From Octopus vulgaris (taxonomy: Eukaryota), in assembly GCA_951406725.2 (NCBI GenBank), contig OX597822.1:7564001-7628000 (forward strand): a DNA stretch of 64,000 nt, in the 5' to 3' direction. This document shows, piece after piece, positions 5,675-56,035 of the stretch (position 1 is the stretch's first letter; the number at the start of each line of letters is the position of its first letter). A program made the position numbers and the translations under genes. A model generated the notes under the pieces. It made no database searches and was not told where the DNA came from. It saw nothing but the letters and a program-made list of their open reading frames with translations.

Positions 5675-7668
5675 AAGGAATTTTAATAAAGGATAATAGA
5701 GATGTATGTATCTATGTGTGTGTGTACCCCAATATGCCCAGAAAGAATCCGAAGTTTTAAGAGATCATATTCTCAGCCAGAACGTGTATCATGCCTGCAA
5801 CGGTCGATGTATCCATGAGAGTACAGGTCTTTCAGTCTTTCATCATCTACATCAGGTCATATCAATCATTGTGTCAAAGGTTGTAATAACTGATGTCAAC
5901 ATTGTGCAATTTCAATGATGAAAGATTTGAAAGAAAGACATCTTTACTTGAAATTTAAGTTCAAGTAAATGAAATCGTTTGCGGGTATGCTTTGATGTTT
6001 GTGATAGCTTTACAAGAAGTAGTATTCTGCAATACGTTAATTGTTAGTAGTCTGTGAGTGATATGAAATATCACGGTTCCTACCAGATTTCCGAATCTAG
6101 AAGGATATTTATCGAAGATAATCACAAGTTTTGATGGCATTCCACAGTAATGAAAATATTATATTGCAAAATATCATAATGTAATCAGAGACAATCCTTG
6201 TTTGATTATCATTGAAGAATCAGAAGAAATATATATTCTAGAATTGTTGGTTCACATGATTACATCGCTGGTGTAACGCGCTGCTTCAGAATCTGTGCAC
6301 GGTGTCCGCAGATCGACATAAAAATATGATGTGTTCTTTGAGTGCATTGTTTCCTCCAGTTTCACAGTCCATCTTGAATTCACTTCGGGCAAAAGAAGAG
6401 TTTAATTAAAATTTGCTCCGGGATACCCGAATCTCTAACTGTAATTGCATTTTAGAATATACTGCAATGCTAGATAATATATTGGGAGCTCAAACGTATA
6501 TCGACGATGAACGGACGGAAGAGGTTAATTTTTATAGACAAGACTTACTAACCTTTGAACAAAAAGCTATCTTTTATATATTTGAGAAACGTATAGGATT
6601 GATTTCAATGATGATCTGTAGCACAAAATATTGGTTCCTATTCCTCCTATCACCACTCACAGTTTCTAAGTCGTTTTGTGGATAATAGTTACGTAGCATT
6701 ATTGATATTTACAACCAATCTTCGTTGATTCGAAGACATCAATGATCTTAAGAAACATCTCAGCCTCACAATTTATGATTTCCTCTACAATGCATCTATT
6801 AATTCTAAGTTCATTTAAGCGACATTTTATACTCTTAGATTCCTTAACTTAGATTTCTTAGATTTCTTCAGTGAAGTTTGAGAAAATATATCAATCATTG
6901 GCTAGTTGAACAAGAATTTCTTATATTCCCCTATAATAGCATGTTAATTGGCATGTAAGCTCCATATAATTAGCTAATTCTATAGGATCCAAATTACGGT
7001 GAGGGAGATTCTATTTAGGAGACATTACGTATCAGATTGGTTCAAATTTAATTCTATATAAGTTATCACTGCATGATTCGTTATCTGAAGTAAAAGCAAC
7101 ATTCTTAACTTCAGTGATTATATGTGAGCCAGATGTATTTGTAAGTCTATCATTATATACTTAAGTCTCATCGTTAACCTGAAAGGATTTCAACAGAGTT
7201 AGGAATCTAAATCCAAATTTGTCATCATGTTACGCAAATCCATTAAACAAACCTTTCATTATCGTAAAGCTCTGAAAAATTGATTGATGCTTTCATTTTT
7301 ACTTGACAAGTTAGATTAAGACGTAATTCTAATCACAAATTTTGATATTTCAATGTAAAATCGTTAATGGCTTATTTTAATTTTGAATAATTCATTCCAC
7401 TTCGATTAATAGTTAACTTCATAAAATGTTACTGCATATATAGGGAATATTAGCAAAAGTATAACAAAACTATGATAAAGTAATAGTGTATTACACCAAT
7501 TGCTACGCAATATTCAAAACAGTAACCATATTCCCCGCCAGGTAAAGAACTACAGTTAAAATGCTCAGTTTCCGATAATACAGTTCTATATTTAAGAAAT
7601 GAGGAATTATTTACATTATTTACATTATTTACATTATACGGATAGTTGTCCTCATCTTGTTTGTTGTT

Positions 7669-7716
7669 AACACAGCGTTTCGGCTGATGTAATCTCAGGC
7701 CTTCATCAGGTTTCTT
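7669..7716 (-). ncRNA. Minimal type-I hammerhead ribozyme motif (H1), cleavage triplet mutated
   Basis: Minus strand: aagaaac-CTGATGA-a-ggcctgagattacatcagcc-GAAA-cg-ct-gtgtt. Confidence 0.7.
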
Positions 7717-7802
7717 GGGGAAATTTGGATCCTGGGTTCTCATTCCTGAGGTATTTTTCGATGTTCTTTTTGTTGTTGCTGTTATAATTATTATTATTAT
7801 TG

Positions 7803-7902
<100 letters not shown>

Positions 7903-7922
7903 TTGATTCCAGGCAGTGACAT

Positions 7923-8001
<79 letters not shown>

Positions 8002-8029
8002 CAACAATAATAATAATAATAATAATAAC

Positions 8030-8060
<31 letters not shown>

Positions 8061-8120
8061 GCAACAGCAACAACATCGAAAAACACCTTAGGGATGAGAA
8101 CCCAGATTCGAAATTTCCCC

Positions 8121-8168
8121 AAGACACCTGATGGAGGCTGAAGGGTATATCAGCCGAAACGTTGTGTT
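8121..8168 (+). ncRNA. Minimal type-I hammerhead ribozyme motif (H1), one core change
   Basis: GACAC-CTGATGGA-GGCTGA(agggtata)TCAGCC-GAAA-CG-TT-GTGTT. Stem I is GACAC/GTGTT, stem II has 6 bp, and stem III is the palindrome AACGTT. Confidence 0.75.
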
Positions 8169-9709
8169 AACTCAAAAAACAAGATGAGGACAAATATCAG
8201 TCAAATATAAATAATTTAAATAATGCACAGCCTCGGAGTTGTCTAGATTTTGGATCGAATCTCCTGAAAGGCACAATGGGCGTGTGTAGAATTTCGTGCG
8301 CGGTTCGGTGTGAATGACGTGTTGTAATGGCCAGCTACGTTAATCTAACCAAAATTCTTGGAGCTACTAATGGAACTAAAATTCCTGTTACGGATTTTAC
8401 ATTTGTATCCCTGCCTTGTTCAGTGATTCTTGGAGGGTACTTACCGGAACTAGCTGCGGAAAGGGAGTTCCCAGCTCGCTGAGTCGAGAATCTGTTGTAC
8501 TTTTGAGAAAAGACCTGAGTAAATTACGTGTATTTAAATTCAAATCGTGGTCGCCGCGTACGATTACATTTCACAAATAATGCTAAAATAATTCTAACCA
8601 TGTATTGCTTAGATTGTACCTGATATTTTTCAAAAAGCAACATATTCCAACAACCCCATTTTTAAAAAAAATAGATATGAATACATATCTCACCGATATT
8701 CCAACCTACACACAGATACAGACACAGAAACACTATTTTTCTTCTCTTACTCGGCATATAATATTATGTAACAACACTTCATGTAATTTAAATAGATATT
8801 TTCTCATACGTTCGGTTGTTATTCAGTGAATAGCTATAAACTATACGCTCAGATTGACTCACATGCATAAATGTTGCGGCTCTTTTGTAATCCGCCATAC
8901 GCATTAATCATATTTTCTCTCGAGATCTGACCCATCCACTAACGGGCGAATAATTATCGCATCATTCAGTAAGCAGTGACATATCCAACATGTTAGAAAG
9001 CATCTCATTCTCTGGCAATATGCTCTTTGCTTTAGCTATTATTGCTATTATCGACAAAATTTTGAAAATGTTTTCAGTGAACAGTTAAAGAAAAAAATAA
9101 AGCAATTTATTGACTACTTCGTTAGAAAATTAAACACTCGAGTATATTGTGCGGCAGTTAATTAATCGAATTCTCAACTTAAATAAATATAATTAGAACA
9201 TGAGTATAATGCAATCAAATTTTCAATTAGATGAGGTTTTAAGCATTAAAATTCCATTGACTTTCTATTTCTTACTATGTTCTGTTCTCCCATTCTTCCT
9301 CTCCTTTTCATTCAGTTTCATTTTTTTTTGATATTTCCCTATATGCAGTTCTCTGTCAAAAACAGAAACAAAATCTCTTTAACAGCCACTCTTCTGTCTC
9401 TTCAAAAACATCACATCGCTAGGTTTCGAATTTTCTCATGTCAGGGTAATTTCTTTTTTTAGCTCTACATTTGTTACTAAATAGAATGTAGATATTTATG
9501 TAACTTACTTTCTTCGAGTTATTGGTAAACCAAACTATAATTATTTGCTTCATTAATATTCAATAATTTAACACAAAATCATACTTCCTTTATTCGGCCC
9601 CATAAAATCCCTTATTATTGCTGACATGAGGAGCAAAATTCTATTTTGTTAACAATTGTTGGTGTGTCGCAAAATAGGTTCTGTGTACTTGAAAATTCTA
9701 CACTGATTA

Positions 9710-15877: not shown

Positions 15878-16078
15878 AGTTCTATATTTAAAAGATGAGA
15901 TATTATGTACATTTTTTACATTCTTTATATTATTTACATTCGACGGATCTTTGTCCTCATCTTGTTTGTTATTAACACATTAACACACCGTTTCGACTGG
16001 TATACCCTCCAACATTCATCAGGTGTCTTGGGGAAATTTGGAACCTGGGTTTTCATTCCTAAGGTATTTTTCGATGTT
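15878..16078 (-). mobile_element. Penelope 3' pLTR (family H1) with degenerate hammerhead motif at 15982-16029
   Basis: Homologous to 7582-7765. Minus strand reads aagacac-CTGATGA-atgttggagggtataccagtc-GAAA-cg-gt-gtgtt. Orientation is the same as the adjacent PLE ORF. Confidence 0.8.
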
Positions 16079-16079
16079 G

Positions 16080-16157
<78 letters not shown>

Positions 16158-16169
16158 TTATTATTATTG

Positions 16170-16598: not shown

Positions 16599-18260
16599 TG
16601 TTTCGCCTTTGTATAACCTATCACAGCTGCTTGAGATGGAGTACACGCAGTTTTTGGTCATATTCTCTTCTATTGGTTGTTTTACCCGAAGAAGATATTT
16701 GCGAAGCGTTGTATTACTCTTAAAGACTGTCCTGATGTTATATGGATCGCAAATCGTTTTTTGTGTGTGTATCCTTTCGGAGAGGCTTTCATATAAGGTA
16801 GAAAGTCTGTAGACAGTTTATTGGTTTTAACCGCTCTTTTCTTCATGATTGGAATAGATAGTATGTTTTGGGGGTAATTGTTGCTTAATAGATTGTTACT
16901 GAGCTTGTTCATTTCTTCGTCGTGGGTATTACGATCGCTACTTATGTTCTTTGCTCGATGTTTTAGGCACTGAGCAATTCCTCTCTTTACACTGTATGGA
17001 TGGCGGTAATTGAAGTCAATCTATCGTCTACTGAAGGTCGGCTTGCGGTATATGGATGTCCTGAATCCATACTTGGTGTGTTTTATTAATACGTCCAGGA
17101 ATGCTAGCTGATTGTCTTTTTTCTTTTCCATTGTGAACTGTATGGATGGCTTTATTGAGTCCACATGATGTGACAGCACTTGGACATCTTCCTGGTGGGG
17201 TCAAAGAATAAAGGTCAAGGAATAAAGAATATCTTAGCCATAGGGTTGGTTTTAATGGTGTTGATCCTAAAGCCACATTTTCAAAGAATTCCATGTATGT
17301 ATTGGTTCTTACCGGTGATAATGGCGAACCGATTACTAAACACTCTTCCTGTCGATATATATCAGTGTTCATACTGAAATAGGTAGTTTCTACACAAAAC
17401 GTCAAAATTTCCATCAATTTTCCTTTTTGGTAAACTAATGCGTTCTTTTAGATGGGTGTCTGTTGTTCTTGAATTACCGATAGTGCTTCAAAGTTGGGAC
17501 TTTGGTAAACAGAATTATCATAACTAGACTCATTACCTGGTTTAATCCAATGGGGGGGGGTATCCTTGATCAATTCTGTGAAGTGGACGGAATTCTTCAC
17601 GTGCTATGTTGACCTTCCTGCTAATGGACTGATTATATCCACAAGGAAGCAGCTCAGTGGGTGACATGCTGAACCTCTACAGCGCACTATAGGTCTTAAT
17701 GGAATACCATCCTTTTGAATCTTAGGAAGACCTTACATGTGTGGTAGTTTACTGTAGTGTTGAGTCAGTTGTCTGTACTTCATCGGTGTAAAGTGATCCT
17801 TGTTCTTGATCAAGATCTAAGACAACTTCCTCTCTGTTTTTCAGAGTTCAGACTTTCTTTACTTTGCTGTAGCTACCTTTACTTCTAAGACTTGCCATTT
17901 TTTCCGAGTAGTCAGACTTGTTCATCACTATTGTAGCATTTCCCTTGTCTGCTGGAAGTATTATGATGGAATTGTCACTCTGTAGTCTTTTGATAGCAAA
18001 CGTTTCTTCCTTAGTGATGTTTGGTTTGGGAAGTTTCACTTTTTCTAGTACCTGTCTCACTTTCCACTTTAGTTTATCTCCCTGAGCTTTTGGTATCTTT
18101 ACGGCTATCTCTTTCAATAGGGGCTATTATGTCCAAGTGTGGAATGCGCTTGTTGGTTGTCGCAAAGCAGAGACCTTTGTTTAGTACTGCTTCTTCAGAG
18201 GTTCCTAGATGTAAGTTACTTACATTAATTACTGCTTTCACAGGTGGCTGACGGACTTCA
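16599..18260 (-). mobile_element. Penelope-like retroelement ORF (RT plus start of GIY-YIG), pseudogenised
   Basis: VINVSNLHL..EEAVLNKGLCFA, IIILPADKGNATIVMNKSDY, GLPKIQKDGIPLRPIV, GSPLSPV..N.YME.FE, WLRY, FTMEKE..NQLAFLDVLI, IYRKPT, and NCVYSISSSCDRLYKGET (GIY-YIG). Multiple stops and frameshifts. Confidence 0.92.
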
Positions 18261-18261
18261 T

Positions 18262-18363
18262 AATGAAGCCTGGAAGGTAAATCAGCAGACACGTTGGGTT
18301 AACAACAAACTAGATGAGGACAAATATTCGTCAAATATAAAAAATATAAATAATGTAAATAAT
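18262..18363 (+). mobile_element. Inverted partial pLTR (family H1) at the 5' side of the Penelope ORF
   Basis: aatgaagcctggaaggtaaatcagcagacacgttgggttaacaacaaactagatgaggacaaatattcgtc is a decayed copy of 8130-8226. Confidence 0.8.
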
Positions 18364-18894
18364 GCCCTTTTTATTGTATAAAATACGATCATTGATGAGA
18401 AATTCTAATAAAATATTTGAAAATATCTTCCCATCTTCTCACTTGATGGCACATTGTATTGCTTGCTAACATGTAGTTCACATATGTCTTTTACAAAAAT
18501 TAATCGCAACCCTAGATTGAAAATATAAAATGACTTTTTTAAAATACGTTGTGTATACAAAAATGTTATGCCGTGGAAACAGATTCCTGTAGAATAGATG
18601 CCACTTAAATGTCCTCTACTTCTGTTAGGAAGTTGCACTGCAATCTACAGAAGGCTGTGAGTATAACTAAACCTAACTAGAAATTACATGAATATAAACT
18701 TCAAATGTTTCTTTCTAAAATAACACTACCGGCATATGCATCAGCGCAGTGTAAACATGTTTACTTAAGAAAAAGGTACCCAAACCAATGAACATGATAG
18801 ATAAATTGCATTATTCGACAATCCGAATGCTTGCTGCAGTTAGGTAACTAATCTCTTCGGTATTTCAGCCTGAAACTCTTTGTGGGGATTGTAT

Positions 18895-20212: not shown

Positions 20213-20408
20213 AATATTAGGGAATAAATCCAAATTTACAGGGAAAAATCAGATTTAGGATTGAATCCAATTTTATAGTAAAATATTATATTATATTAAA
20301 TTAGAGACAAAACCACTATTATGCAAATCAAACCAAGAAAGACTTAAGCCAATACGTAAAATATTTTATATAATTTGTTTGATTTGCATAATAGTGGTTT
20401 TGTCTCTA

Positions 20409-20412
<4 letters not shown>
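20205..20412 (-). mobile_element. Family H3 terminal fragment with a 35-bp internal inverted repeat, flanked by (TA)n
   Basis: Reverse complement of ~12230-12390. aattagagacaaaaccactattatgcaaatcaaac (20299-20333) is inverted at 20377-20411. Confidence 0.75.
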
Positions 20413-20464
<52 letters not shown>

Positions 20465-21323: not shown

Positions 21324-21792
21324 TAGATAGATACATACATACATACATACATACATAAATACATATATAAATAAATGTGTATGTATATATATATATATAT
21401 ATATTTATGTGTGTATTTGCGCGTGTAGAATTGGAGAGGATTCGCGAGTGTCATTTGTGTATGCTTGTATGTATGGGAGTGTTGGTGAGAAAGGTTTTAG
21501 GGTCCGACTTCAAATCAACCCCAGTATGTATGGGCCTCTCATACGTAGGAAAAGGAAAGATACAAGGAAGGGAAAACGGAGGAAAAAATCGCCAGCGATT
21601 TTAAAGGCGGTCACATTTTGAATCAATATATATATATATATAAAAGACCACTATGTGGTCAGCCATATGCTAGAAGTAGATCACCTGCGATCAAACTACA
21701 AAGAAAAGAATGTTCTCTAGAGAAAAATTCAGCAGACACCAGAACAATATGCGGGCAAGACAAATGAAAATTATATAAAAAAAACAAGAATT

Positions 21793-21870
21793 AATCGCAG
21801 ACCTAGGTTTCGCCTATTACCGAAAGAATCACTTATGTAATCCTCATCCGTACGGCTCGTCAGTACGATC
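21793..21870 (-). ncRNA. Type-I hammerhead ribozyme with intact core (H2)
   Basis: Minus strand: GATCGTA-CTGACGA-GCC[gtacggat gaggattac ataa gtgattctt tcggtaata]GGC-GAAA-CCTAGG-TC-TGCGATT. Stem I has 7 bp, stem II is GCC/GGC plus a 9-bp distal hairpin, stem III is palindromic, and the triplet is GUC. Confidence 0.88.
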
Positions 21871-22204
21871 GTTCCACTAGCCCTTTAAATATATACACAT
21901 GTATTAGAATTATCTCAGATTCTTCAGAATTTTGTATGCTAGGATACTGCTTTTAAATTGATATTAATTAAATTAATATTCAACTTATCTCCCTTAATAT
22001 TTAAATGTTAAAATAAATATGTTCTCTAATAGGCAGCATTAAATGCAGTAAATTATTTACTGCAGATTTTGTTTCCGGAATTTTAGCGCGCCAGAACTCA
22101 GACATTTGAAATTAACCCCAATATAATCGGTGAAACTAAGCACGCGTCTGTTTTTTATACGGAAAACTGGTGATTAGTTTTACAAATTATATTACCTGTG
22201 GAAC

Positions 22205-22283
22205 GATCGTACTGACGAGTTCTACGGACGAGGGATTGCGTAAGTGATTCATTCGTTAATAGGCGAAACCTAGGTCTGCGATT
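22205..22283 (+). ncRNA. Type-I hammerhead ribozyme with intact core and weakened stem II (H2)
   Basis: GATCGTA-CTGACGA-GTT...GGC-GAAA-CCTAGG-TC-TGCGATT. Predicted cleavage is after C22276. Confidence 0.8.
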
Positions 22284-22566
22284 AATTCTTGTTTTTTTAT
22301 ATAATTTTCATTTGTCTTGCCCAAATATTGTTCTGGTGTCCGCTGAATTTTTCTCTAGAGAACATTCTTCTCTTTGTAGTTTGATCGCAGGTGATCTACT
22401 TCTAGCATATGGCTGACCACATAGTGGTCTTTTAGCCCTTTAAATATATACACATGTATTAGAATTTTCTCTGATTCTTCAGATTTTTGTATGCTAGGCT
22501 ACTGGTTTTAATTTGATATTAAATTAATATTCAATTTACCTCACTCATTATTTACATTATATATAC

Positions 22567-22644
<78 letters not shown>

Positions 22645-23859
22645 GTATGCGCATCTATACACGTGTAATGTTGTATGCTTGTCTAAGTGTATATGTGTGC
22701 ATTGTGTGTATGTATTTGCGTGCATATGTGTGTGTGCTTGAATTGTCTTCCTGTATATAGATTCGTTGCACTGTCGTTCTCCCATAATCTTGTGTAAGTT
22801 TCTCCGTAGTACAATTTAGAATACTGTAAATTATTAAGAATTATAATGGAGGAAATTTCTTTGTAAATAATTGAAGTGAACTTAACATTTGCTTATCATA
22901 TTGTATCTAAACAGTGATTCATCACATGTGACTTAACTGAAATCAAACGTGTGTTAAGCATTATTACGTTTTAAAATTTGCTTCAATTTGTAGAAGGAGA
23001 AAAGCTTCACTTGATATCCTAACATCATATATTAGATGAAATATGCAGGAAATCAGACTTTTATATTGGCGAAGCAATTTATCTTCACACAATACCTTTC
23101 AATAATACAATATTCTCACAATTTATCAAATTACTGATTAATGTCTTTCTCTATACAACATTTTCAAGTTGTATTTGATTTAAACTTATATCCATTGTGA
23201 AGGATACCAATAATCAATACAGACCTTTCACTTATGCAATACGTTCTTTCGTCTTGTTGATGTTAAATATATCTCAGTTAATACAGATGCCGTTGCTTTT
23301 TATTGATTTATTTCATGAATTCTTGTTTAGTCAAATTCTCATTAACTGATATCTATAGAAACCGAGGGAATTTTCTATAAATATTACCTTATCGTTTTCC
23401 AACTTAAGCAACTTTATGCTATACACTTTACGGGACAATGGTCCAGTGATAGATCACAGAATCTAGAAATTGTAGAATATGGCTTCAAATGGCATTTTTA
23501 TATCAGATTTGACTACATTTTCAATATCAAAAATTGCATGTTATCTAAGTTTATGTAGGTTCAAATCGGATGTTATACGAATCTAATTTTTTCATCAGTC
23601 ACGTTGTTAATAGGTAAGTTTTTTAATTACAATAACATAGAAAATGTAATGTTGAAGAGATATAGATGTGTGGTTCATTTCGCAAGATGTAGTTTTGCAT
23701 TTGAACTCACTATGCAACACAATATGCAAGTGAGGTTGTGTTGCAGCCACTGGGGTTTTCGGTGTGGAATTTATAAAATAGATAAATAGCGAACTAGATG
23801 GATAGATGCAAACACACAAACACAGGCACACACACACGCACGCACACACACATACACAC

Positions 23860-40325: not shown

Positions 40326-41187
40326 AACAGCAGTTGATAATATTAACTGACATAGGTTGTAATTTTTATCTAGGGTTAGAATTAAGTAAAATTACCTTCC
40401 CAAATATTGGAAATAAATCACACAGCGGAATAATCTCGCGTCTCTTGAGAAATGCATCCTGTAAATATTTTGTTCCTTTTCGATTATCTGCTGATATTCA
40501 GAGCATACTCTTGTGATTTTCCGATTATTTTACCAATGAAACAAATGTTATTCATTCTGGCTGCAAATAAGCAACACCATCTTGCATACACACACATGGA
40601 AGGAAGGCGCATCCATCACTTATTCAAACACTTCTGGAGCTATATAATGGTATGTGCGAAGATTTTGTACTCACAAATTGAAGTATCGACAAATCAATTC
40701 TACGATATCAAGCGTCTTCCGAATAAAGAATACACGGTGTGACTATCATTGTACACAGACACACACACACACATACACACACACACACACACCTTGCTAA
40801 GGAATTGTGATATTAATAACGCGGCGCAGAACCCAGCATACGTATGAATCTGAATAAAGCGTTATTGTAGTACAGAGCGGGAATAAGGAAGAAAATCTAA
40901 TGACAAAGGAATAACTGATTATCTTATGAGCTTAATTAGCTAACACCTGCTTTCGCTATAAGATGCACTGGACTCATAGTGTGGTTCCTGATTAATACTT
41001 CATAGCTTCATCTGAGCATCTAACAAGTTTGAAAACAGGAACTCGACCCTGATTCCACCACATCGTGTAACGGAAACAGCTGTAAGCTAATGACGTCTAT
41101 CAGATAATCATTTAATCATTTATTCCTTTGTCATCTCTTACATTCTTATATATACAGATACACGTAGTAGCTTACTTACTGACATAC

Positions 41188-43569: not shown

Positions 43570-44130
43570 GAACTCCGTCCGTTACGACGACGTGCGTTCT
43601 AATTGATCCGTTGAAGAATCAATTTGCTCGTGAAATTAACGTGCTGAGTACTCCGCATGCACGCATGCCTTTAATGTAGTTATCAAGGAGAACCAGCGTG
43701 ATCGAGAATATGACAAAGGTGGATCTTTGAATTTCAGTTAAAACCAATAATTGCCAACGTGAAATGAATTGCTTCGCTAAATGACACCAGACGCTGTTGA
43801 TAATCGAAACTCATGATCATACGTTCGTGAACAGAATAACCTAGCCATCAAGTTACGTGCCTTCACTGAAATTTGCACACCGTCGGTCACGACGAAACAT
43901 GATTTAGTTGATCCGAACAACGGAACACCTCGCTCGAGAAATTAACGTAGCAATGGCAAAATACATGAAGGCCGGTAGCGCCCTTGAAATACAGAGGCTA
44001 AAATATTTTGCAAGCTGAATGGACTGGAGAAACTTGATATAAAGTATCTAGCTCAAAAACACAATGCGTCGCCGGGTATCGAACTCACGGCAACTTTCAG
44101 TCATATACAATGGCCACAAAGCCACGCGCG
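43570..44130 (-). mobile_element. Two tandem old SINE copies with an S4-like head and the tail type seen at 52060-52230
   Basis: actccgtccgttacgacgacg...ttgatccg...gctcgtgaaattaacgtg is the reverse complement of the 52150-52225 tail. It recurs at ~43880-43950. Confidence 0.65.
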
Positions 44131-44254
44131 TTCCCGGTTTCTCTCATATTACTTGGGTTTTAGCGGATATGATACGGAAGCGGATATGTTGTGCTCTTCT
44201 GGTAGCATTTTTGAAACACAAAAGAGCACATAGAAACAAACAACAAAGTATTGG

Positions 44255-44451
44255 TTTTAAAACATGGTCAGCAATTTCGAGGAGACTGCAAGTCGATTAC
44301 ATCAATTCCAGTAATTAACTGGCACTTGTTTCTATCAATACCGAAAGGATGAAGCGTAAAGTCAACACTGGTGACATTTTAACTCAGAGCGTGTGAAATA
44401 CCGCTAAACATTTTGCTCCGTGTGCTAACGATTCTGCCAGCTCTCCTCCTC
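44255..44451 (-). mobile_element. SINE family S1, diverged
   Basis: gaaaggatgaagcgtaaagtcaac...gtgctaacgattctgccagctctcctcct. Confidence 0.75.
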
Positions 44452-54876: not shown

Positions 54877-56035
54877 CAGGGGTTGGATAAAATAGTGGAA
54901 ATAGCAACATAGCGTCATAATTCTGAAATATCTATAAAACTGTCAAAGCTTGTTTATTTATTATTTTTTTAAATTATTATCAGTGTTGCTTGATATCTTT
55001 CCCTAAAATTGCTGTTTCTTCTCAGATATCATCAGAAAACGGTAATTACAATTTCATTAAATTGACAGATCTATCGGACTTTCAAAGAGGTCAAATTGTT
55101 GGTGCTACTATGGCAGGCGCTAGCATAACGGAAACAACGGAAATGTTTGGTGTATCAAAAAGTACTGTCTCGAAAGTAATGACAGCCTTTGAGAAAGAGG
55201 GAAAAAACTTCTCGTCGAAACAAAACTCCGGAAGAAAACCAAAGCTTTCAGAAAGAGACCGTCAAAATTTTATGCGAATTGTTAGAAAGGATCACAAAAG
55301 TACAGATTCCAAAGTCACTGCAGAGATTAATGACCACTTCGAGAAGCCAGTATCTACAAAAACTCTTCGCCAGGAGCTGTACAAAGCCGGATTTCACAGG
55401 AGGGCTGCAATCAGAAGACCACTACTTTCGAAAAGAAAGCTTTTAGAGTGGAATAAAAACCTACAGAATTGGTCCCTAGAGCATTCAAAGAATGTTATTT
55501 TCTCAGACGAGACATCCTTTACCTTATTTCCGACCACCGGCCGAGTATACACGGGGAGACAGACAAAAGAAGCGTTTGACCCAAACAGTTTTCTTTCAAA
55601 TGTCAAACATGGAGGAGGATCTGTGATGATCTGAGGTGCTATATCTTGGAAATCCTCGGCCCAATGGTTTCTCCTTACAGCAGAATTAATAGTGAAAACT
55701 ATTTAAGCATTTTATCCGATCAAGTTCATCATATGGTTGCGGAACTGTTTCCGGGGGGGACGCAATCTTTGAGGAAGATAATGCACCAATTCACACAGCT
55801 AGAGTTGATACACGAGGATCATTCTAGTGAAGTGGAACCTGACCTCAGTATTATTGAACATTTATGTTGCATTTTCGAAAGTCAAGTCAAGAGTCGTTAT
55901 CCTCCACTATTATCATTACAAGAACTGGAGACTGTTTTAGCTGAAGAATGGACAAAAATTCCTTTCGAAAAAATTCAAATTTGTACGAGTCCATACCTCG
56001 TAGGATCCAAGTTGTAATTACTGCGAAAGACAGTA
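54877..56035 (+). mobile_element. Tc1-family DNA transposon with pseudogenised transposase (about 55062-56030)
   Basis: Left end caggggttggataaaatagtggaaa. Peptides DLSDFQRGQIVG, SGRKPKLSERD, VIFSDETSF, VKHGGGSVMI*G, IFEEDNAPIH, PDLSIIEHL. W-to-stop at 55632 plus frameshifts. The right TIR was not seen. Confidence 0.93.

Follow-up and report, generated by a model that had tools for sequence, protein, structure and literature searches.

A non-coding 555-nt hammerhead repeat of Octopus vulgaris, probably inserted into a (TA)n run by a Penelope-like enzyme acting in trans

The window analysed here comprises 64,000 nt of microsatellite-rich animal DNA (Octopus vulgaris, contig OX597822.1, positions 7,564,001 to 7,628,000 of the forward strand), whose short repeats, as far as we can judge, resemble octopus SINEs. 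Close to position 22,000 it contains an element built of repeated non-coding segments in the order A'-B-C-A-B, flanked on both sides by (TA)n. From left to right, the left part of the (TA)n target (21626–21642) ends in a TA with which the inverted arm also starts, and is followed by A' (21643–21877, − strand), an inverted, 5'-truncated copy of segment A that is 94% identical to 22198–22432. The direct part of the element starts with the first copy of segment B (B1, 21878–22006, + strand), the inversion junction being at 21877/21878, and continues into the single-copy, non-coding middle of the unit (C, 22007–22197, + strand), which has predicted helices and joints that are bridged by diverged contigs of the family described below. 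Then comes the direct copy of A (22198–22432, + strand), delimited by inverted-repeat comparison and carrying a hammerhead at its 5' end, and the terminal copy of B, or 'tail' (B2, 22433–22557, + strand), the end of which is the 3' end both of the element and of other copies of the family. The right part of the (TA)n target occupies 22558–22648; both target parts were read directly from the sequence and have no strand.

The inverted repeat reported in the first-pass annotation is present, with 14 differences in 235 nt (94% identity) between 21643–21877 and 22198–22432, while the TA at 21641–21642, which had been counted into it, is common to the inverted arm and the flanking (TA)n. The outer end of A' coincides with the A/B junction of the unit, and its inner end lies 7 nt upstream of stem I of the hammerhead. 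The direct repeat with a period of 555 and starts at 21878 and 22433 is likewise there and is longer than the ~110 bp first given: it extends over 21878–22006 and 22433–22557 at 88% identity and therefore places the 3' end of the element at 22557, adjoining the (TA)n. The A'-B-C-A-B layout proposed for 21641–22545 thus stands, with a 3' end 12 nt further on. In the direct sense the element comprises 1.23 units with one ribozyme, the second ribozyme being inverted, and B adjoins the direct A and is absent from the inverted A', so that a tail is found at one end only. That there is no open reading frame, and that (TA)n lies on both sides (21626–21642 and 22558–22648), was also borne out: the longest ATG frame in 21641–22545 has 34 aa, and the six frames contain no RT or GIY-YIG ORF. 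We detected no tRNA-derived part in the element and neither a poly(A) tail nor a readable target-site duplication at it. A blastn search of the window returned no further copy, only AT-rich matches of at most 78 nt, and comparison of the unit with the Penelope-like element (PLE) remnants within the window gave nothing significant.

Each arm contains a complete type-I hammerhead, as had been claimed, formed by stem I (GAUCGUA/UGCGAUU), CUGACGA, a long stem II, GAAA, the palindrome ACCUAGGU and GUC; CUGANGA, GAAA, NUH, a three-way junction and an open stem I, which characterise type I, are found in both. The motif on the + strand (22205–22283) is made up of stem I at 22205–22211/22277–22283, the core at 22212–22218, stem II at 22219–22264, GAAA and the stem III palindrome ACCUAGGU at 22268–22275, with the predicted cut after 22276, where it had been placed before. 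The better-folding copy is on the − strand (21793–21870, predicted cut after 21800). The descriptor hits two sites in 128 kb (both strands of the window), one per arm; in dinucleotide-shuffled windows the strict descriptor gave a hit in 0 of 30 and the loose one in 4 of 30. In the hammerhead scan that the first-pass annotation had suggested, Rfam Hammerhead_1 (RF00163) aligns to both arms, with 28.8 bits (E 1e-4) for the + arm and 30.3 bits (E 7.3e-6) for the − arm; as both scores are below the gathering score of 34, a scan of the whole window at that score returns no hits. Both scores are probably lowered by an inserted 33-nt hairpin, which interrupts loop 2 of the Rfam model; the AAUA of that loop is retained beside stem II.

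How would these two ribozymes fold? As a monomer, the − copy is predicted to have its active fold 4.4 kcal/mol above the ensemble, and for the + copy the predicted gap is 10 kcal/mol. The predicted misfolding of the + ribozyme results from an alternative hairpin at 22196–22227 (+ strand), which buries the CUGACGA core with predicted pair probabilities of 0.93–0.97. This hairpin persists in prediction when 20 family-majority letters are inserted and may therefore characterise the family as a whole, and the active fold of the monomer is then still predicted to lie 5–7 kcal/mol above the ensemble. In a double hammerhead, estimated roughly from a hand-built structure, the − copy would be favoured by 3.7 and the + copy, which carries changes weakening stem II, disfavoured by 1.7 kcal/mol per ribozyme. 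On either strand 72–74 of the 79 ribozyme bases are predicted to pair with the far arm, in line with the earlier suggestion that a long hairpin masks the ribozyme whichever strand is transcribed. Since there is one cut site per strand, the locus cannot release a 555-nt monomer, which disposes of the idea of a unit-length product from this copy. The copy at the locus looks decayed and appears dead. The inner end of the inverted arm (22196–22198) coincides with the base of the core-blocking hairpin; this position may be the 5' terminus of the template RNA, and no recurrent start at 22196–22198 was seen among the 24 loose ends of family contigs listed of 445.

Elsewhere in the window there are sequences that we take to be decayed, 5'-truncated Penelope/Poseidon-like RT and GIY-YIG-like frames, at 16600–18366 (− strand), the RT/GIY-YIG stretch being placed by eye at about 16600–18260; a fragment at 504–986 (− strand), without a Pfam hit, presumably resembles a PLE GIY-YIG endonuclease. 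Pfam gave no recognition of the decayed PLE frames in the window. An inverted stub of a minimal-hammerhead repeat sits at the 5' end of the 16600–18366 (−) remnant. The minimal-hammerhead repeat also occurs as an inverted repeat, unrelated to our element, at 7614–8225 (85%), with a minimal hammerhead at 7709 (−), a decayed mirror of it near 8128 (+) and arms separated by (TTA)n and (TAA)n, and in further copies at 15878–16168 (ribozyme near 16022, −) and 18263–18366. The 12-mer ATTATTTACATT is present six times in the window (22547–22558, 7606, 7615, 7624, 15929 and 18363). Five of these copies lie near the ribozyme of this second PLE family, and the remaining one, at the element's 3' end, has the opposite direction relative to the ribozymes; the recurrence may be chance in AT-rich DNA. 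Other features are a broken Tc1/mariner-type transposase at 54927–56017 (+ strand; HTH_Tnp_Tc3_2, E 6e-9, first frame), self-inverted stretches at 20283–20430 (77%) and 40900–41134 (68%) from comparison of the window with itself, and a stretch at 43800–44354 that folds with a z of −3.6.

PLE insertions are described as partial tandems that carry an inverted, 5'-truncated copy at their 5' end and a tail on one side, with a bias towards (TA)n (Craig et al. 2021, PMC8557442), and the element has features of this type: an inverted 5'-truncated copy in a partial tandem, a one-end tail and a microsatellite target. In the account of Frangieh et al. 2024 (PMC11167929), the PLE tail corresponds to the sequence separating two RT start sites, PAc works mainly on uncleaved RNA, and priming requires no target homology; the overlap of TA at the junctions may therefore be due to chance. 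The pair of ribozymes on opposite strands, initially regarded as special, turns out to be less so, as opposite-strand hammerhead pairs 100–700 bp apart have been reported for PLEs (Cervera and De la Pena 2014, PMC4209133) and the window contains a second, unrelated pair at 7614–8225; such a pair is thus an expected by-product. The reading we favour, with moderate confidence, is that the locus holds a decayed copy of a non-coding 555-nt B-C-A hammerhead repeat that was inserted into (TA)n by the RT/endonuclease of a PLE acting in trans.

On this reading, a donor in which two copies of the unit, differing slightly, are arranged head to tail would give rise to a + strand RNA of the form A-B-C-A-B, at least 915 nt long and with both ribozymes uncut. 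The PLE protein would nick both strands of a TA run, priming at the end of B would copy B-A-C-B and priming at the A/B hairpin would copy A; joining of the two cDNA ends would then produce A'-B-C-A-B. B, lying between the two start sites, would in this case represent the PLE 'tail', and the ribozyme on the opposite strand would be a by-product. The insertion would have been left with one cut site per strand, buried by the predicted 235-bp hairpin, and would have decayed since. In the family at large, tandem donors are predicted to self-cleave, best as double hammerheads held together by the stem III palindrome, and the resulting 555-nt monomer would be highly self-paired and may be circularised, the alternative hairpin silencing its ribozyme if the fold prediction is correct.

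The unit is found far beyond the window. With the single unit 21878–22432 as reference, we analysed contigs from four of 24 listed public runs, three of them of DNA type and under three organism labels. The DNA-type runs yielded 1425, 1525 and 921 family contigs, most of them 90–99% alike, with 30 of 30 bins of the unit covered; the fourth run (X13), whose RNA type was guessed and which may hold DNA, yielded 185 contigs over 30 of 30 bins, and its depth profile tracks those of the DNA runs (Spearman 0.80–0.86); no conclusion is based on it. The run search listed no RNA run containing the unit, which is not informative about expression. The A-to-B joint accounts for 2 of the 8 listed joints and in addition for 12 of 12 among the rows listed (12 of 20), and contigs with ~10% other letters (8 records) extend across the B-C and C-A joints, across B-C in all three DNA runs. 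As all three joints recur in diverged copies, the 555-nt unit has spread as a unit: it is a many-copy family of its own and no one-off. No contig spans the whole unit, and two ribozymes in one direction were not seen among the contigs. Variant sites of the family are represented by 40 listed of 99, the phase between sites not being given.

Loose ends at the end of B run into (AT)n behind 22006 (12 contigs, X8) and into (GT)n behind 22000 (3 contigs, X2), these microsatellite ends being 2 among the 24 listed of 445. Half of the listed joints (4 of 8) switch to the opposite strand; their positions all differ from one another and from the junction of the locus, each has the depth of a single contig, and three of the four were recovered from two or more runs. 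The summed depth is highest at the 3' ends of B and A, ~10–100x above C and the ribozyme, where it should be kept in mind that depth sums are not copy numbers, that the trough separating these maxima could stem from the edges of the reference and that part of B is AT-rich. Truncation at the 5' end from two start sites would give such a two-peak profile. Related copies differ from the reference behind 22408 and 22417, and only 1–2% of the aligned contig sequence continues into unlike sequence, a weak measure since contigs break at branches. The hammerhead pattern was found at 0 loci in viral contigs. Three hammerhead loci in metagenome contigs were rejected as relatives because they share the motif only and have no blastn match to the element. 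One unrelated metagenome contig (L001:377–438) has a hammerhead-like motif in which stem I is 5 bp long and the stem III palindrome is identical to that of the element.

Compared with shuffles, the + strand of the unit folds with a z of −7.0 as a circle and −7.4 as a linear molecule, the − strand with −2.4 and −2.6, respectively, and 13 background windows fall between −3.6 and +0.8; with such a strand asymmetry we rejected an origin of the structure from foldback at the DNA level. The predicted structure is a closed branched rod with 63% of bases paired, in which C pairs with A behind the ribozyme (22019–22111 with 22306–22365) and forms a long hairpin of its own (22120–22193), both with helix probabilities of 0.8–0.99, while B also pairs with A across the unit. 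A further hairpin (22411–22437, + strand, GGCU...AGCC) is formed over the A/B junction, where it probably acts as the first RT start site, and two other sequences found at this position in related copies also close with GGCU/AGCC. Replacing 20 letters by those that are in the majority in all three DNA runs (drawn from the 40 listed of 99 variant sites) lowers the predicted energy of the circular fold by 8.5 kcal/mol, and random changes of the same type lowered it in 0 of 150 cases, with a mean of +14.5. Listed changes of the ribozyme in the family affect core position N7 and replace U-G by C-G at the base of stem II, and the stem III forms are self-complementary at 8/8, 8/8, 8/9 and 6/6 positions (among the 40 listed of 99 sites). 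Because majority letters strengthen the predicted fold and the stem III forms stay self-complementary, the RNA of the family looks as if it were under selection.

At the locus itself the arms differ mainly in stem II, as had been noticed from the start, with 9 of the 14 differences in its 46 nt and 5 in the 189 nt elsewhere (Fisher p 0.0002), and decay of CpG was rejected as the cause of this cluster, since it persists after removal of CpG-type changes (p 0.0005). Core, stem I and stem III show no difference in 33 nt, which is within chance (p 0.13–0.41), and selection on both cores at the locus was rejected on these grounds; the earlier view of the intact, shared core as a mark of selection is not upheld, with p 0.13 for its identity and a + copy predicted to misfold by 10 kcal/mol. 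At 22220, 22221 and 22240, which are among the arm differences in stem II, both letters are common in the family. At 21922, 22312 and 22388 the two copies agree in letters that are, for the most part, rare in it, and so they derive from one sub-lineage. B1 departs from the family majority by at least 7 letters where B2 agrees with it, and the departing letters of B1 and A break predicted pairs. The stem II cluster could stem from a hypermutable hairpin or from a switch between two RNAs.

What served as the template then? The direct part begins within 2 nt of the point at which the inverted arm is primed, i.e. the A/B junction, and by our estimate such an abutment would arise about once in 100 cases by chance if the two were independent. 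The shared register fits two primings on one linear A-B-C-A-B RNA. In LINE-1 twin priming the inverted 5' part is primed where the direct part ends, and PLE inversions may, by analogy, arise through twin priming. If the A/B hairpin were a hot spot for starts and stops alike, the argument from register would be weakened. The retrozyme route offers another template, namely a 555-nt circle, generated by cleavage of tandem transcripts and a host ligase and then copied by a PLE enzyme 1.2x from one primer and 0.4x from a second. Such a model has been proposed (PMC4209133) and would suit the intact cut sites of both copies, the closed branched rod with 63% pairing and a z of −7 on the + strand only, and the ribozyme that is predicted to be blocked in the unit RNA, as PMC7229834 describes for plant retrozyme and viroid circles. 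A single circle, however, predicts identical copies with even decay, and what is seen instead is the stem II cluster, with 9 of 14 differences in 46 nt (p 0.0002–0.0005), which leads us to prefer the linear dimer. Moreover, on a circle the second priming site would be reached by the first enzyme after 125 nt already, yet copying would have to end there in the second round only, and the main substrate of PAc, as reported in PMC11167929, is uncleaved RNA. We consider the circle unlikely for these reasons and rate an uncleaved linear dimer distinctly above it as the template. The proposal of the first-pass annotation, a circularly permuted 555-nt unit copied by a PLE with a 5' inversion, is thus retained for the unit, the hammerhead and the PLE pattern, and the single circle is the part of it that we would replace.

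Could the unit lack an RNA life of its own and represent no more than the pseudo-LTR region of an autonomous PLE, or something derived from one by a single deletion, with A, B and the ribozyme under selection within that PLE? Depth at the 3' parts of A and B greatly exceeds that of C and the ribozyme, so that these parts may belong to a larger family as well; related copies differ behind 22408 and 22417, and retrozymes of Xenopus match pLTRs (bioRxiv 10.64898/2026.07.22.740005). This origin is nevertheless quite doubtful in our view, given that the B-C joint is present in ~10% diverged contigs of all three DNA runs, that just 1–2% of contig sequence runs into unlike sequence (weak, because of breaks at branches), that C-A and B-A pairing spans the whole unit with a fold improved by family letters, and that the ribozyme is canonical, in contrast to the minimal type of the ORF-bearing PLE family in the window. 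Intact cores on both strands and a long hairpin predicted on both might also suggest an RNA device kept by the host, in which transcription of either strand would run into a ribozyme or a 235-bp hairpin, and the transcript would thereby be terminated, edited or silenced. Such a role is highly improbable, as the identity of the cores is within chance (p 0.13–0.41), the + ribozyme has a weakened stem II and is predicted to misfold by 10 kcal/mol, letters of B1 and A that are off the family majority break predicted pairs, and the same layout recurs among further copies and in a second family within the window. Equally improbable is an inversion after insertion, that is, a DNA rearrangement of a satellite-type tandem A-B-C-A-B with no second priming: A' is indeed a clean in-place inversion of the first A in a 1.6-unit tandem, yet the breakpoints have no repeats other than TA, inverted 5' copies are regular in PLE insertion according to PMC8557442, and the family has them at four other places. 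Insertion of the non-coding unit by a PLE enzyme in trans, from a linear dimer, remains the reading we prefer.

The locus is ordinary debris of a known process, and the family is of a known kind. Its wider meaning, which we put forward tentatively and regard as somewhat doubtful, would be a family of large animal retrozymes (555 nt), so far uncatalogued and probably from octopus, that makes viroid-like circles, with a hairpin in loop 2 and a ribozyme silenced by its own 5' flank, and with copies that show the full PLE insertion signature and two RT start sites 125 nt apart, the two-ribozyme copies being a record of their template. If true, this would amount to proof at the level of junctions that PLE enzymes move retrozymes, and would provide a natural data set on how PLEs form tandem and inverted ends. 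The link between animal retrozymes and PLEs rests, in the literature consulted, on co-occurrence and on likeness to pseudo-LTRs in vertebrates (PMC7229834; bioRxiv 10.64898/2026.07.22.740005), and the authors of the 2026 preprint state that they did not look for this kinship in other organisms (bioRxiv 10.64898/2026.07.22.740005). Here an invertebrate hammerhead unit without an ORF displays the PLE insertion pattern directly, with an inverted 5' copy, a tail and a TA target, and copies with two ribozymes allow a genome-only test between circle and linear template. The long tail, the loop 2 hairpin, the predicted self-blocking of the core and the record of the template are the points of interest.

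Among known systems, the unit resembles non-LTR retrozymes in being AT-rich and non-coding, in having one canonical type-I hammerhead with a stem III of 2 bp capped by a palindromic tetraloop, in its high predicted self-pairing, and in the PLE mobilisation and PLE origin proposed for both. Dimeric PLE hammerheads were reportedly described by Lunse et al. in 2017. Animal non-LTR retrozymes are presented as self-paired circles of 170–400 nt with PLEs as likely carriers (Cervera and de la Pena 2020, PMC7229834); at 555 nt our unit is larger than these and falls within the 51–972 bp given for units derived from pseudo-LTRs by Li, Clavereau and Pollet in 2026 (bioRxiv 10.64898/2026.07.22.740005). 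Since an active retrozyme needs two tandem ribozymes by the definition in that preprint, and the locus does not have two in the same direction, it is no 'active retrozyme' in this sense; of the Xenopus retrozyme dimers tested there, 1 of 9 cleaved and 8 of 9 did not (bioRxiv 10.64898/2026.07.22.740005). The unit differs from retrozymes by the 33-nt hairpin in loop 2, and it is set apart from animal retrozymes by its predicted self-blocked ribozyme, for which PMC7229834, in the sections available, names among animals only some mussel circles. The repeat annotation of Octopus vulgaris has 31 recently active Penelope-like families, and in its available text the words ribozyme and hammerhead are not used (PMC13282606). 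We found no description of the 555-nt family in the literature searched, which had supplements and most subscription journals outside its scope, and the family is probably uncatalogued, although the tables of the 2026 preprint, Dfam or Repbase could already list it.

With PLE insertions the element shares the partial tandem, the inverted, 5'-truncated copy near the 5' end, the tail at one end, the (TA)n target, the hammerhead in the repeated part and an opposite-strand pair within 100–700 bp (PMC4209133). In contrast to PLEs, it has no RT or GIY-YIG ORF, its hammerhead is canonical instead of minimal, and its tail measures 125–129 nt against the 30–40 bp given in PMC8557442; its 3' end lies 281 nt behind the cut site, compared to about 85–92 nt in PAc by our arithmetic from PMC11167929. 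Chlamys and Naiad elements, as portrayed in the available text of PMC8557442, differ from it in lacking canonical hammerheads. The element lacks the poly(A) tail and the readable target-site duplication of LINE-1 twin priming, with which it has in common an inverted part primed where the direct part ends. Finally, it is similar to MRC1, a non-autonomous PLE of the Chlamys clade that is short and ORF-less, with pseudo-LTRs and head-to-tail insertions (PMC8557442).
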